Sequence record: NC_024789.1
DNA length: 45,746 bases
Strand: one strand, 5' to 3'
Source of the DNA: Escherichia phage vB_EcoS_AKS96
The notes beneath the pieces are model-generated. The model did not search any database and was not told where the DNA came from. It saw only the letters and a list, made by a program, of their open reading frames with translations. The position numbers and the translations under genes were made by a program. Shown here piece after piece: positions 29,993-36,055 of this stretch. Numbering within the stretch: position 1 is the first letter of the stretch; each line of letters opens with the position of its first letter.

Positions 29993-30036
29993 AATAGCAC
30001 TTTTTGTTAAACATTGGTTTAGATGGCTGTTATTAT
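29993..30036 (+). promoter_or_regulatory. conserved box-plus-minus-10 cassette (copy b)
   Basis: AATAGCACTTTTTGTTAAA, 21 bp, TATTAT. Confidence 0.5.
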
Positions 30037-30073
30037 ATCGTCAATCGAACGAACATTAAAGGCATTTGATATT

Positions 30074-32017
30074 ATGGAAAACCGATTGAAAACAATACAA
30101 AAACAGATTGAAGAATTGGGCGAAGATAAGATTAAAGAGATTCAAACTAAATTCACCTCTTCTAACGGTATGGTTCCGTATAGCTATCAGTGTGTTATGT
30201 ACAATGAGATTGCAAAGCGCATTAGTCGCTATGAGCATCCATTTATCGCAATGGCTTCAGTTTCTGCTGGTAAGACTCTGGTTTTTGGTATGGTTGCTAA
30301 GCGTTGCTCTGAGCTTGGCTTGCCTATGCTTGTTCTTGCTCGTCAGGCAGAGCTGGTTAGCCAGAATGCTTCTGAGATTTCTGATTACGGGGTTCCTAAC
30401 TCCATTTATTGCTCTGGGCTTGGAATAAAATCATCTTATTTCCCTGTGGTGGTTGGCTCTGAGGGCACAGTAGTTGGCGGGCTTAAGAAGTCACTTGGCG
30501 ATTTCTGTCCTGCGGTAGTTGCTATTGATGAGTGTCACCATATTGATGACCAGGACATAGCGGAGGCAATTGATAACAATGAGACTGCGCAACAGGCATC
30601 AGATAAGGGGCGTAGCCAGTATACGGTCATCATCCTGACTTTAATGGAGCGCTGCCGTGCTAAGTATGGCAAGAATCTTCGTATCTTTGGACTGACTGGT
30701 TCTCCTTTCCGTGGAACTACGCCAATAGTTGTTGAAAACAAAAAGGAGTTGGGATTTTGGCGTGAGACGGTCACAAATATCGATACAAACTACCTGGTCG
30801 AGTTCGGTTCCGTGGTTCCGACAAACTTTGGTGCTACTGATGGCGTTGGTTACGACCTGTCAGAGTTTGATGCATCATCTGAAGATGGTGTTCAGGATTA
30901 CACTAAAGCCCAGCTTGAAGCCATGGATAAAAAGATCCAGGCATCTGGAACAATGACAGCGGAGATAATGAAGAAAGTATGGCTTGCCGCGAAAAACAGG
31001 AATGGAGTTCTGGTAACATGCGCAGGTGAGCGCCATTGCCACGAAGCCGCAAGTTACCTTCCTGAAGGTGAAAAGTTCTGCATTATAACTGGAAAGACTG
31101 GCGAGAAGCAGCGCAAGGAGTTGCTTGATAAGTGCTTTAGCGGGGAGATTAAATATTGCTTTCAGGTTCAGGCGCTAACCACTGGCGTAAATGTGCCTAC
31201 ATGGGATACAAGCGTTATTCTGCGTAAGATTGGTAGCCTTACGCTCCTGGTTCAGCTACTTGGTCGAGGAATGCGTAAGCTTAAGAAGCTCCATGAAGAT
31301 AAAGGAATGGTCAAGAATGACCATTTGGTACTGGACTTCGCAGGAACGATGGACTCTATGGCATCATTGTACTTCAATCCAATTCTTGAGCAGGCTCAAT
31401 ATCAGCTACGAAAGAGTAATGGCAAGGAGACTAAGCAGTGTCCAGTATGCGGAACAGAGAACAGCTTCTTTGCTCGACGTTGCATGAATATTGATGAGAA
31501 TAATAATCGCTGCGAATATTTCTGGGTTAGTCGCACATGTGAAGACCAGAAAGACCCACGAACCGGAAAGGTTATCGTTAAAGGCTGCGGAGTTCAGAAT
31601 GACGTTGCAGCTAAGATTTGTAGGGGTTGCGATTGCACTTTGCTTGATCCAAATCTCAACTTAAGCGGCAAACATTACCGCAAGAACGACTGGTTTGATG
31701 TTGTTGACTTTAAGGTTGGGCTAACAAAGAACCAATCAGGAATCATCTACAACTACATCCTTGATGATGGCATGGGTGGGACATTCAAAGCTCATGAGGT
31801 TTTCTTTGTAGAGTCTGACCATCGAGTATGTAAAACGCTCTGGTTGAACAATGGAATTAAAGGTCACGTAGTCGACATGAACGCTAAGCGATATATGGCT
31901 GCATATCGCAATGCTCGCAAGATTATGGAGTATGCGCAGTACATCCATGCTCCTAAGAGGGTAACTCACCGCAAGACCGCTAAAGGTGGCGATAATATTG
32001 CTAATAAGGAGTTCTAA
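30074..32017 (+). CDS. SF2 DEAD/DEAH-type helicase with C-terminal zinc ribbon
   Basis: Walker A SAGKT, Walker B DECHH, motif VI QLLGRGMR, CPVCG...C zinc ribbon; start set at ATG 30074 downstream of cassette. Confidence 0.8.
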   Translation: MENRLKTIQKQIEELGEDKIKEIQTKFTSSNGMVPYSYQCVMYNEIAKRISRYEHPFIAMASVSAGKTLVFGMVAKRCSELGLPMLVLARQAELVSQNASEISDYGVPNSIYCSGLGIKSSYFPVVVGSEGTVVGGLKKSLGDFCPAVVAIDECHHIDDQDIAEAIDNNETAQQASDKGRSQYTVIILTLMERCRAKYGKNLRIFGLTGSPFRGTTPIVVENKKELGFWRETVTNIDTNYLVEFGSVVPTNFGATDGVGYDLSEFDASSEDGVQDYTKAQLEAMDKKIQASGTMTAEIMKKVWLAAKNRNGVLVTCAGERHCHEAASYLPEGEKFCIITGKTGEKQRKELLDKCFSGEIKYCFQVQALTTGVNVPTWDTSVILRKIGSLTLLVQLLGRGMRKLKKLHEDKGMVKNDHLVLDFAGTMDSMASLYFNPILEQAQYQLRKSNGKETKQCPVCGTENSFFARRCMNIDENNNRCEYFWVSRTCEDQKDPRTGKVIVKGCGVQNDVAAKICRGCDCTLLDPNLNLSGKHYRKNDWFDVVDFKVGLTKNQSGIIYNYILDDGMGGTFKAHEVFFVESDHRVCKTLWLNNGIKGHVVDMNAKRYMAAYRNARKIMEYAQYIHAPKRVTHRKTAKGGDNIANKEF

Positions 32018-32406
32018 TGGTTAAGGTTTTTCACGACAAAACAAGCACGGACAAGGCTAAGGAGGTTGTTCACCAAATAAATTCAATAGCTTGGGTTCGC
32101 CACAACCATCCAGAGATATTTGCTTTTCACGTGAAGAATGAAGGTCTCAAGTCTATCGGCACAGCAATGAAGGACAAGCAGGAGGGAGTAATTAAGGGTG
32201 TATCAGATATTCTACTGATTGGACCAAATGGCTTTGCCGCAATAGAGCTTAAGCGAGCAATAAAATCAGATAGCAAGGTTTCAAAGGAGCAAAAGGAGTT
32301 CCTGGAAAAGGTATCAGAAACAGGAGGTTACGCGGCAATCTGTTATGGGTTTGAAATGTTTAAGTTGGCAATTACAGATTATCTATCAAATAGCACGAAT
32401 TGCTAA
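32017..32406 (+). CDS. VRR-NUC domain nuclease
   Basis: GVSDILLIGPNGFAAIELKRA...EQKEFLEKVSETGGYAAICYG. Confidence 0.55.
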   Translation: MVKVFHDKTSTDKAKEVVHQINSIAWVRHNHPEIFAFHVKNEGLKSIGTAMKDKQEGVIKGVSDILLIGPNGFAAIELKRAIKSDSKVSKEQKEFLEKVSETGGYAAICYGFEMFKLAITDYLSNSTNC

Positions 32407-33831: not shown

Positions 33832-33900
33832 ATGAAAACATTACTACCGTTGCTGGCGGTACCAGTAACCTTTATAATCATGTACTTCATAATCTGCTAA
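33832..33900 (+). CDS. possible 22-aa hydrophobic micro-ORF
   Basis: MKTLLPLLAVPVTFIIMYFIIC after cassette leader; very short, speculative. Confidence 0.2.
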   Translation: MKTLLPLLAVPVTFIIMYFIIC

Positions 33901-33914
33901 TAGGAAATTAAATA

Positions 33915-35051
33915 ATGGCTATCGCTAAAATCACCAACGAAGAGTTAAAGCAAGAACTGGCTAACGGTATGACTAACAAGGCAATCGCAGAGAAGTACGG
34001 TATGAATATTCGTAACGTAGAGCTGCGTCGCAGCAAGTTGGCTAAGGCTGGGGATGGTCACGGTCGCGATGTGAGTAACCTAATTCCTCAGGGCTACATG
34101 GTTAAAGGTGTATCTAGCCTTGTTGATAATGATGGCAATGTGAAGTTGCAATGGGTTAAGTCCTCTATTGATGCAGAGAAGCTTGAGGAGATGATGAATC
34201 AAGCGCGAGAGGCATTCTCTAGCGAGCTACCAAAAGAAAAAGCAGTTAAATCTGAAGGTCTGAATTTTGATGAAGATACTTTAGCTATGTATCCAGTATT
34301 TGACCTTCACATTGGCGCAATGGCCCACAAGCATGAGTGCGGAGAAAACTACGACACAGCAACGGCAGAGAAAGTAATGAACGATTATTTTGACTACGCC
34401 GTACAGAAATCTCCAAATTCAAAGAATGCTGTACTAGTGCTAGGAGGTGATCTGCTTCATTATGATTCCTTGGAAGCCAAAACTCCAGCCAGTGGTCACA
34501 TCCTGGACAGTGACAGTCGCTACGCCAAGATTGTTTATGTTTGCATTCGAGCGGTTCGCCGCGCAATTCGAAACATGCTTAGCAAACATGAAAACGTAGA
34601 TGTTAAAGTTATATCTGGTAATCATGATGAAAGTGGTATGGTTTGGTTGCGGGCTGCGCTTGCTGCATTTTATGAGGAAGAGCCACGCGTTAGTATTGAT
34701 GTTAGTCCCGCGGCAATGATGGTAACTAAGTTTGGTTCTACAATGCTTGGTTTCACTCACGGGCATCAAATGCGTAAAGCTGATACTCGCCTTTCGGTTA
34801 TGGCTACTGACTGGCGACGTGACTTTGGTTTAAGTGATTATGTATACACCCACTCAGGCCACTGGCATTCACAGAAGATTACAGAGACAAATCTTGGTAT
34901 TGATGAGGTTCATGGTCAGCTTGGTTCACCAGATGCATATAGTGCGAATGGCGGGTGGCGCTCACAAAGGCAGGCTGCGGTAATCATATATCATAAAGAG
35001 TTTGGTGAGGTTGGTCGTTTTATCTGTCGCCCAGAAATGTTTAATAAATAG
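33915..35051 (+). CDS. calcineurin-like metallophosphoesterase with N-terminal HTH-like segment
   Basis: motifs DLHIG, GGDLLHYD, GNHDE, THGH, GHWH; N-terminal MTNKAIAEKYGMNIRNVELRRSKL. Confidence 0.7.
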   Translation: MAIAKITNEELKQELANGMTNKAIAEKYGMNIRNVELRRSKLAKAGDGHGRDVSNLIPQGYMVKGVSSLVDNDGNVKLQWVKSSIDAEKLEEMMNQAREAFSSELPKEKAVKSEGLNFDEDTLAMYPVFDLHIGAMAHKHECGENYDTATAEKVMNDYFDYAVQKSPNSKNAVLVLGGDLLHYDSLEAKTPASGHILDSDSRYAKIVYVCIRAVRRAIRNMLSKHENVDVKVISGNHDESGMVWLRAALAAFYEEEPRVSIDVSPAAMMVTKFGSTMLGFTHGHQMRKADTRLSVMATDWRRDFGLSDYVYTHSGHWHSQKITETNLGIDEVHGQLGSPDAYSANGGWRSQRQAAVIIYHKEFGEVGRFICRPEMFNK

Positions 35052-35065: not shown

Positions 35066-35070
35066 AAACT

Positions 35071-35092
35071 ACCCGCGAAAGCGGGTATTTTT
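35071..35092 (+). terminator. rho-independent terminator
   Basis: acccgc-gaaa-gcgggt plus T-run. Confidence 0.6.
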
Positions 35093-35116
35093 GTTTCACA
35101 CAACTGAGGAGGTAAT

Positions 35117-35608
35117 ATGAATTGGAATGATTTTCTCGAATATAGAGATGGAAAGCTTTACTGGACAGATCCACACTCAACAAAATTTAAGCCAGGGGAT
35201 GAGGCTGGATGTAGGCATCATAGGGGTTATCATTATATAAGGAGATATAACACCACGATGTCAAGGCATAGGATAGTATGGACAATGTTTAATGGAGAGA
35301 TACCGGAAGGCATGGAGATTGATCACATAGACCATGACGTTGAGAATGATCGGATTGAAAACCTAAGAATGGTTACAAGGAGGCAGAACAATCAAAACAA
35401 AAAGCTAGATGAAAGAAATACTAGCGGACATGTTGGGGTTAGTTGGAACAAGAAGACAAAAAAATGGAGAGCAATGATAGGTATAAAGGGTAATGACGGG
35501 AAGCGGAAAACGGTATATGTTTATTATGGTGACTCTTTCGACGACGCGGTATTGGCAAGGAAGAAAGCTGAAGCTGAATACTCATTTCATGAAAATCACG
35601 GAAAATAG
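35117..35608 (+). CDS. HNH homing endonuclease with AP2-like domain (paralog of 562-1077)
   Basis: EIDHIDHDVENDRIENLRMVTRRQNNQN; GHVGVSWNKKTKKWRAMIGIKG. Confidence 0.75.
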   Translation: MNWNDFLEYRDGKLYWTDPHSTKFKPGDEAGCRHHRGYHYIRRYNTTMSRHRIVWTMFNGEIPEGMEIDHIDHDVENDRIENLRMVTRRQNNQNKKLDERNTSGHVGVSWNKKTKKWRAMIGIKGNDGKRKTVYVYYGDSFDDAVLARKKAEAEYSFHENHGK

Positions 35609-35681: not shown

Positions 35682-35867
35682 ATGGCTAAGTTCACACAAT
35701 CAGATGCACAGATTGAAGTTAAAGATGTTGGTTTTGGTAAGACATTTCGGATTGCACAGGCTTACGGATCAAGCGAAGAAGATATCAAGGTTGATGTTAT
35801 TAACCTTACGGAGAAAAATGCAAGTGAAATCGCTTATGCAATCCTTGCGGCACTTGGAGAGCGTTAA
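35682..35867 (+). CDS. hypothetical protein
   Basis: 61 aa from ATG 35682 after leader aacgagagga. Confidence 0.4.
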   Translation: MAKFTQSDAQIEVKDVGFGKTFRIAQAYGSSEEDIKVDVINLTEKNASEIAYAILAALGER

Positions 35868-36055
35868 TGTTGCAAACAATCAAAGCTGAGATGGTAAAGG
35901 TTGGTGATGAAGTTTTGTTCTCAAACTGCCCACCGCAGGTAGTTAAGGCTACAAGCCTTGAGTATTACCCTGGCTGTATTTTCGTAATGATTAAGACCAT
36001 GGGTGGTAACTGCTTCCCAATTAATGTAAACACACTTATTTGCGTAAACCGTTAA
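35867..36055 (+). CDS. hypothetical protein
   Basis: 62 aa, TAATG overlap. Confidence 0.35.
   Translation: MLQTIKAEMVKVGDEVLFSNCPPQVVKATSLEYYPGCIFVMIKTMGGNCFPINVNTLICVNR

Follow-up and report, generated by a model that had tools for sequence, protein, structure and literature searches.

A phage metallophosphoesterase family with an exchangeable DNA-binding module: a candidate stand-alone DNA nuclease of T1-like phages

The gene at positions 33,915 to 35,051 (plus strand) of Escherichia phage vB_EcoS_AKS96 (NC_024789.1; the window analysed here is the whole stretch of 45,746 nucleotides) encodes a protein of 378 amino acids in which an N-terminal helix-turn-helix (HTH) and a β-hairpin precede a calcineurin-like metallophosphoesterase core. 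We hypothesise that this protein is a stand-alone, DNA-tethered DNA nuclease of the two-metal (Mn2+-type) class, a proposal for which we judge the case to be evenly balanced. Every independent line of evidence favours a nucleic-acid-directed enzyme over a protein phosphatase. This upholds a first-pass annotation of the sequence, which had placed the open reading frame (ORF; ATG start, 378 codons and a stop) at exactly these coordinates and had argued for a nucleic-acid-directed enzyme instead of a generic phosphatase.

The genome is that of a Rogunavirus, a T1-like coliphage, with 98.5% identity to vB_EcoS_AHP42 over the 3.5 kb compared, and the protein is 99.7% identical to AHP42 gp45. Its T1 orthologue is gp16 (ST16), which the authors of the T1 genome record described only as similar to a hypothetical protein. 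The match to PHROG 704 ("DNA repair exonuclease") extends over the full length (E = 3.6e-155; residues 4–376 on profile positions 2–389 of 390, N-terminal region included), so that the resemblance is not due to chance, and judged by sequence the protein is an already catalogued member of this family and not a new one. The name of PHROG 704 is itself a homology-based label. Besides T1 gp16 and AHP42 gp45 the family includes homologues from Jerseyvirus, Dhillonvirus, Webervirus, Vibrio, Roseobacter-group and Campylobacter phages; the AKS96 protein differs from this family in nothing material, and T1 has the same gene order of exonuclease, (HNH), holin, endolysin and spanin. Two PHROGs of "unknown function" match only part of the protein (20703, N-terminal residues 1–195; 20762, C-terminal residues 259–375), and phage Jk06 has its copy annotated in two pieces, each called "DNA repair exonuclease" (JK_64P and its neighbour); such cases suggest that in some genomes the gene is split or frameshifted, or that the sequence contains an error.

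The first-pass annotation had implied that fusion of an HTH to a phosphoesterase is unusual, whereas it proves to be the standard architecture of a very large phage family. Using tblastn, we found the family in 2,015 phage records, in 1,946 of them nearly full length, from Drexlerviridae, Jerseyvirus, Dhillonvirus, T1-like Klebsiella phages, Vibrio phages, Roseobacter-group phages and Campylobacter Eucampyvirinae. Searching 1.84 billion cluster representatives (50% identity) with a profile gave 5,355 matches at E <= 0.001, of which 1,353 had E <= 1e-30; the median length among the top 150 was 392 amino acids. The gene belongs to the persistent core of Drexlerviridae, of which 508 of 522 have it (PMC13164509). 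PHROG 284 ("exonuclease") is a sister family (E = 1.3e-19). Only five records of the plasmid database carry the gene, most of them of phage-genome size. One is a 49,647-bp "plasmid" of the Gram-positive anaerobe Paraclostridium bifermentans (CP124687.1). The record has the length of a T1-like genome, its homologue is 68.6% identical to the AKS96 protein, and a contaminating T1-like phage or a misassigned phage genome may be the explanation.

The catalytic core and its nearest structures

All five motifs of the calcineurin-like superfamily (DxH, GD, GNH(D/E), H and GHxH) are present, as the first-pass annotation had said, and in an alignment of 148 diverse representatives (28–61% identity to the query) their key residues are invariant or kept in at least 90% of sequences (Table 1). 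The same alignment reveals further family-specific conserved residues in the core, namely T190, D198, D200 and R202 in the loop after motif II, R258 and D340. The Pfam model PF00149 scores 19.4 bits against a gathering score of 21.5, and 30 of 120 relatives match it at E <= 0.01, which argues that the protein belongs to a divergent branch of the metallophosphoesterase superfamily. An AlphaFold2 model built from the 148-sequence alignment (mean predicted local distance difference test score, pLDDT, 93.3; predicted template modelling score 0.78) has the four-layer α/β sandwich of that superfamily. Comparison of the model with the Protein Data Bank (PDB) using Foldseek gave 131 matches at E <= 0.001, with metallophosphoesterases among the matches listed and Mre11 the best (1.2e-8). 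In the predicted model, then, the fold is unambiguously that of a metallophosphoesterase despite the sub-threshold Pfam score.

When structures were ranked, the small subunit of the polymerase PolD, the proofreading exonuclease DP1, came first with a score of 16.3, followed by S. aureus SbcD and Thermotoga Mre11 (both 14.7), the generic phosphodiesterase MJ0936 (14.0), LpxH (13.5), further Mre11 entries (13.4–12.3) and the generic phosphodiesterase YfcE (13.0). The best Ser/Thr phosphatase, PP5, reached only 9.0. A profile of the core alone, searched against 177,635 PDB sequences, found just two kinds of metallophosphoesterase, Thermotoga Mre11/SbcD (E = 0.014) and Pseudomonas putida Nuclease MPE (E = 0.39). 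The Thermotoga alignment pairs "sDwHLGvtsW...GDlLHs" with "gDlHlGmlaW...GDflHad" of the family and continues through motifs III and V in order; with the full-length profile the N-terminus also touches GerE (E = 0.011). Among viral models (BFVD), structurally similar proteins of about 400 amino acids are numerous in phages of Gram-positive and marine hosts, and some of them bear the label "DNA polymerase II small subunit". A PPP-type Ser/Thr protein phosphatase, as in lambda phosphatase, was considered and rejected: the GDxVDRG and GNHE motifs of that class are not found and its members are not the closest structures. Grouping with ordinary Ser/Thr phosphatases, which would have spoken against the first-pass annotation, is thus not what we observe.

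The DNA-binding module and the hairpin

The HTH-like segment of about 40 residues that the first-pass annotation had placed at the N-terminus is modelled as three helices (residues 8–16, 21–27 and 32–45) at a pLDDT of about 95, and so as an ordered tri-helical HTH and not as a disordered tail. It is basic, with an isoelectric point of 9.9 against about 6.2 for the remainder of the protein. In the query itself the Pfam matches to this region (GerE, Sigma70_r4_2 and HTH_24; residues 13–46) are all below threshold, GerE scoring 14–17.8 bits against 23.5. In relatives they are significant: at the same position Dinoroseobacter phage R4C has HTH_30 at 31.3 bits (gathering score 27), and among 120 members HTH_1 matches in 27 and HTH_8 in 19, with best E-values of 1.5e-9 for Sigma70_r4_2 and 2.4e-8 for GerE. 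From these sequence features the HTH probably binds DNA.

Within T1-like phages the HTH is about as conserved as the core (0.78 against 0.80), while its sequence type varies from lineage to lineage. In one lineage the HTH gives way to a CxxC...CxxC zinc-ribbon-like segment (L056:3484-3759; weak matches to A2L_zn_ribbon and Zn_Tnp_IS91), and in another a 482-amino acid protein carries two winged-HTH modules (L008:6001-6642; HTH_11 at 30.3 bits against 25, HTH_9 at 23.4). On this comparison of sequences the DNA-binding module is exchangeable over the family, and its replacement by other nucleic-acid-binding modules speaks for a generic DNA-tethering role.

Between the HTH and the core lies an element specific to the family, modelled as two strands (residues 61–70 and 76–85) and a helix (87–102). 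This hairpin is the best-conserved N-terminal element: G74 and W80 are kept in at least 90% of the 148 relatives, and it is near-invariant over 20 lineages whose cores share just 27–44% identity. A 317-amino acid Campylobacter protein lacks the HTH and retains the hairpin. Its retention there, together with its near-invariance over the lineages, suggests that the hairpin belongs to the enzyme body.

Table 1. Features of the metallophosphoesterase gene of vB_EcoS_AKS96 and its flanks (window positions; conservation refers to the 148-sequence alignment)
Feature	Position	Strand	Residues	Remarks
Promoter-like region	33841..33878	+		Perfect -10 TATAAT at 33873-33878; corresponding promoter annotated in AHP42
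HTH-hairpin-metallophosphoesterase, complete ORF	33915..35051	+		ORF list, PHROG 704, AHP42 identity, T1 ST16 annotation
Three-helix HTH	33936..34049	+	8-45	Basic, probably DNA-binding
Flexible linker	34050..34088	+	46-58	pLDDT < 50 at 47-51; block means 63-71
Hairpin-helix module	34089..34220	+	59-102	Family-specific β-hairpin 61-85, KGVSSLVDNDGNVKLQWVK; helix 87-102
Second linker			103-118	
Metallophosphoesterase catalytic core	34269..35048	+	119-378	Nothing follows the core
Motif I, D130-L-H132	34302..34310	+	130-132	Predicted metal ligands; D130 and H132 invariant; aligns with SDWHLG of Thermotoga Mre11
Motif II, G178-D179-L-L-H182	34446..34460	+	178-182	D179 invariant; G178 and H182 at least 90%; aligns with GDLLH of Thermotoga Mre11
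Motif III, G235-N236-H237-D238	34617..34628	+	235-238	N236 and H237 invariant; G235 and D238 at least 90%
Motif IV, H282-G283-H284	34758..34766	+	282-284	H282 invariant; G283 at least 90%
Motif V, G315-H316-W-H318	34857..34868	+	315-318	H318 invariant; G315 and H316 at least 90%
Strong intrinsic terminator	35070..35097	+		7-bp G+C-rich stem, then T-run, 19 nt past the stop; closes the transcription unit; annotated at the matching place in AHP42 and T1

Genomic setting of the gene

The gene appears to be preceded by its own promoter, which a consensus scan did not list because the -35 element is weak. Directly 5' of the TATAAT lies an 8-bp inverted repeat, GTTGCTGG-CGGTA-CCAGTAAC (33849-33869, plus strand), which is not conserved in T1 and may serve the upstream genes as a terminator or act as an operator. 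No upstream palindrome is conserved across lineages, even between T1 and AKS96, and an autoregulatory operator was rejected on this ground.

Upstream in the window are a superfamily 2 (SF2) helicase (30023-32017), a VRR-NUC nuclease (32017-32406) and then five small ORFs of unknown function. The helicase (plus strand) has ResIII and Helicase_C domains and Cys-rich zinc-finger-like segments near its C-terminus; the VRR-NUC ORF (plus strand), annotated as hypothetical in AHP42, starts at 32017, where the helicase ORF ends. Downstream are a homing endonuclease and the lysis cassette. The homing endonuclease, with HNH_3 and AP2 domains (35117-35608, plus strand), begins just beyond the terminator. 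A homologue occupies the next position in three unrelated lineages (AKS96, Jersey-like Salmonella phages and a Vibrio phage) and in T1 (ST15), and the gene is missing from Rogue1-type relatives, which cover just 84% of the 3.5-kb query; a mobile endonuclease seems to have homed repeatedly beside the conserved phosphoesterase gene. A 62-amino acid ORF between this gene and the holin (35867-36055, plus strand) has no Pfam match at E <= 0.01, and at the matching position a stand-alone SH3 (DUF7244) protein has been described for lysis modules of Drexlerviridae (PMC13164509).

We surveyed six genes on either side of the homologue in 80 related viral loci, representing 20 lineages at 60% identity, by BLAST clustering, and scanned 142 neighbouring proteins with Pfam. 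Other than the recurring mobile HNH endonuclease, clustering found no partner gene conserved over the 20 lineages. The Pfam scan found a MazG/MazZ-like dATP/dGTP diphosphohydrolase in three lineages, a PNKP-type HAD phosphatase, DNA polymerase A and superfamily 1 (SF1) helicases in two each, and thymidylate synthase, UvsX and a PDDEXK nuclease once each; two further metagenomic loci have a MazG gene, a PIF1-type helicase, a 5'-3' exonuclease and a PRA-PH (MazG-like) gene. The Campylobacter copy has a DNA ligase and a Holliday-junction resolvase on one side and a tail sheath gene on the other. In Drexlerviridae the gene immediately 3' is often a polynucleotide kinase or dNMP kinase (PMC13164509). 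The HAD phosphatase lies directly 3' of the homologue in 12 of 43 Jersey-like loci; one example, a stand-alone protein of 162 amino acids with the motif DLDGTL (L027:8128-8613, and similarly in lineage L051), is reminiscent of dmp, the phosphatase whose gene lies near A1 in T5. Taken together, this company is one of DNA replication, repair and nucleotide metabolism, and not of anti-defence loci. No Rad50/SbcC-type ATPase was found among the neighbours in the 20 lineages, in the part of the window covered by the AHP42 annotation, or in the complete T1 annotation.

Proposed function and comparison with known systems

We propose that the basic HTH (residues 8–45) would bind duplex DNA, and that the linker of about 13 residues would give the catalytic body access to neighbouring phosphodiesters or DNA ends. 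The hairpin-helix module, judged by its conservation, probably serves in substrate handling or oligomerisation. The core may bind two metal ions through D130, H132, D179, N236, H282, H316 and H318 and hydrolyse the DNA backbone exonucleolytically, endonucleolytically or both, in the manner of Mre11/SbcD, PolD DP1 and PdeM. A Rad50/SbcC-type ATPase would not be needed, and the enzyme would act within the phage's programme of DNA and nucleotide metabolism.

As to its role in infection, our tentative suggestion is that the nuclease breaks down the host chromosome to feed nucleotide salvage, by analogy with T5 A1 and A2. Host takeover, one of the roles named in the first-pass annotation, would on the same analogy be plausible as host-DNA degradation. 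T1 degrades host DNA through a classical host-DNA-degradation locus, for which we know of no sequence assignment. The stronger version, in which the T1 gp16 family would be the host-chromosome destroyer of T1-like and many other virulent siphophages, an independent one-polypeptide counterpart of A1 plus A2 and possibly the product of the classical T1 locus, we think doubtful.

A somewhat less probable role is that of a replication or recombination nuclease, comparable to the Bxb1 gp47 phosphoesterase in processing intermediates, which would trim or open ends, flaps and hairpins together with helicases, VRR-NUC, a RecE-like exonuclease and Erf, and which would be needed for phage DNA synthesis or concatemers and not for destruction of host DNA. 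The neighbours DNA polymerase A, SF1 and PIF1 helicases, UvsX, DNA ligase, Holliday-junction resolvase and 5'-3' exonuclease fit this role, as do the position of the gene downstream of the SF2 helicase and VRR-NUC and its persistence in the Drexlerviridae core. T1-like phages, however, already encode a RecE-type exonuclease and VRR-NUC and have no DNA polymerase to proofread, and gp47 lacks an HTH and belongs to a different family. Host-DNA breakdown is rated slightly higher because of the parallel between the HTH and A1/A2, the nucleotide-metabolism neighbours and the degradation of host DNA by T1.

The remaining alternatives are much less probable. Together with the polynucleotide kinase of the phage, the protein might heal tRNA or DNA ends cut by host defence nucleases, acting as a 3'-phosphatase or 2',3'-cyclic phosphodiesterase in the way of the metallophosphoesterase domain of Clostridium thermocellum Pnkp. 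Polynucleotide kinase or a PNKP-type HAD phosphatase is indeed often the next gene, the Campylobacter homologue lies beside a ligase, and 2',3'-cyclic phosphodiesterase activity is known from metallophosphoesterases such as CthPnkp and lambda phosphatase (PMC2190708). We nevertheless find this unlikely: no RNA ligase is annotated in T1 or AHP42, 3'-phosphatase activity is already supplied by the PNKP HAD domain, and an HTH suggests duplex DNA and not tRNA.

Phages encode enzymes that degrade signals, and a counter-defence phosphodiesterase that destroys cyclic oligonucleotides, NAD-derived messengers or other small molecules is in keeping with this. The HTH and its exchange for other DNA-binding modules would have no part in small-molecule hydrolysis, nucleases rank structurally above signal phosphodiesterases, and the gene, part of the persistent core, lies among replication genes and is not an accessory gene of a variable anti-defence region, all of which makes such a function very improbable. 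Counter-defence, the other role raised in the first-pass annotation, is accordingly not favoured by a gene context of replication and nucleotide metabolism.

We give equally little credence to a transcription regulator whose HTH would act at specific promoters with the phosphoesterase as an accessory or sensor module, in spite of matches to HTH types typical of regulators (LuxR/GerE, sigma-70 region 4, LysR, Fis) and the annotation of R4C gp20 as a transcriptional regulator, since the invariance of the catalytic residues implies selection on enzyme activity, the Campylobacter lineage does without the HTH and other lineages can replace it, and no operator-like palindrome is conserved upstream.

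Several observations weigh against the proposal of a DNA-tethered nuclease. The structural ranking is shallow, and the sequence links to Mre11 and PdeM are borderline at the E-values given above. In hhalign comparisons E. coli SbcD, a member of PHROG 100, was rejected as a relative at a probability of 4%, and no specific relationship emerged to T5 A1 (18%) or Bxb1 gp47 (12%). The capping domain of Mre11/SbcD, which shapes DNA specificity, is absent. With no neighbour conserved over the 20 lineages, guilt by association is diffuse. Our literature search found no experimental or functional study of any PHROG 704 member, and the evidence does not separate host-DNA breakdown from replication or recombination processing.

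As it stands, the analysis is a sound and useful refinement of annotation that will not surprise a specialist, for a very large family (more than 5,000 clusters at 50% identity and about 2,000 sequenced phage genomes) that has so far carried only a homology-derived label. Two points seem not to have been described before: the family-wide combination of an exchangeable DNA-binding module, a conserved hairpin and an Mre11/DP1-like core with no ATPase partner, and the parallel of this HTH-metallophosphoesterase family with T5 A1/A2. T1-like phages are common members of phage therapy collections and common laboratory contaminants. If the enzyme does degrade host DNA, their nuclease for host shutoff and nucleotide salvage would have been identified, and interplay with defence systems that sense DNA-breakdown products would be predicted. 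The enzyme would then yield the mononucleotides sensed by the newly described Metis and PUA-Cal-HAD systems, and loss of the gene should permit phage escape.

Among known systems, Mre11 and SbcD (Thermotoga Mre11, PDB 3qg5 and 4o43; S. aureus SbcD, 7dog) have a capping domain and a C-terminal Rad50-binding region that are missing from the phage protein, which has an N-terminal HTH and hairpin instead. DP1 (PDB 5ihe), a 3'-5' proofreading exonuclease, is only 11% identical; it contains an OB fold and acts within the DP1-DP2 polymerase, whereas the T1 annotation indicates that T1-like phages encode no DNA polymerase. PdeM, the P. putida Nuclease MPE (PDB 6nvo), is a ligase-associated endonuclease of the DNA damage response and, like the enzyme we propose, is stand-alone, Mn-dependent and without an ATPase partner; the likeness extends to weak matches near motif III (NCBIfam TIGR04123, E = 0.01; PDB profile, E = 0.39) and to the Campylobacter homologue adjoining a ligase. 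In its layout of HTH, linker and nuclease the protein also resembles HTH-tethered homing endonucleases and transposases. The sister family PHROG 284 was tried as a bridge to classical nucleases and rejected, SbcD falling in PHROG 100 and gp47 in PHROG 221.

Two phage metallophosphoesterases invite closer comparison. Membership with Bxb1 gp47 and L5 gp54 was rejected, gp47 being assigned to PHROG 221 and not 704. Bxb1 gp47 is a recombination directionality factor of 255 amino acids with neither an HTH nor the hairpin module, and its directionality role depends on a serine integrase that is absent here. T5 A1 is a predicted metallophosphatase that cooperates with the DNA-binding protein A2 and is both essential and sufficient for breakdown of the host chromosome (bioRxiv 10.64898/2026.04.02.716235). 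A1 (PHROG 1745) and A2 (PHROG 1725) resemble the AKS96 protein in pairing a phage metallophosphoesterase with a DNA-binding function, and A1 has the same order of motifs and a common "NHDxxxSxWL" stretch at motif III. It differs in an extra domain of about 230 amino acids before the core and in also controlling second-step DNA transfer, a step that T1-like phages do not have. Homology was rejected, since a single sequence, a 20-sequence A1 profile and local greedy hhalign with alternative alignments gave probabilities of 15–18% with motif III alone aligned, and the 50 closest viral structures in BFVD do not include A1; we therefore keep A1 as a functional analogy and not as family.

T5 itself encodes the DNA-binding A2 separately from A1. 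In A1 relatives outside the T5 group (P0342, P0344, P0345, P0372 and P0384; about 530 amino acids, about 46–48% identity), an N-terminal HTH above Pfam thresholds (HTH_23 at 27.2 against 24.6; HTH_7 at 27.5 against 23.8) replaces the N-terminus of T5 A1, which suggests that the combination of an HTH with a phage metallophosphoesterase arose at least twice. If the AKS96 protein is indeed a self-sufficient DNA-tethered nuclease, its family would add a third or fourth independent lineage to the metallophosphoesterase nucleases of phages, alongside gp47/Mre11-Rad50, T5 A1 and Bxb1 gp47, and a DNA-binding module fused to or paired with such an enzyme would be a recurrent phage solution.

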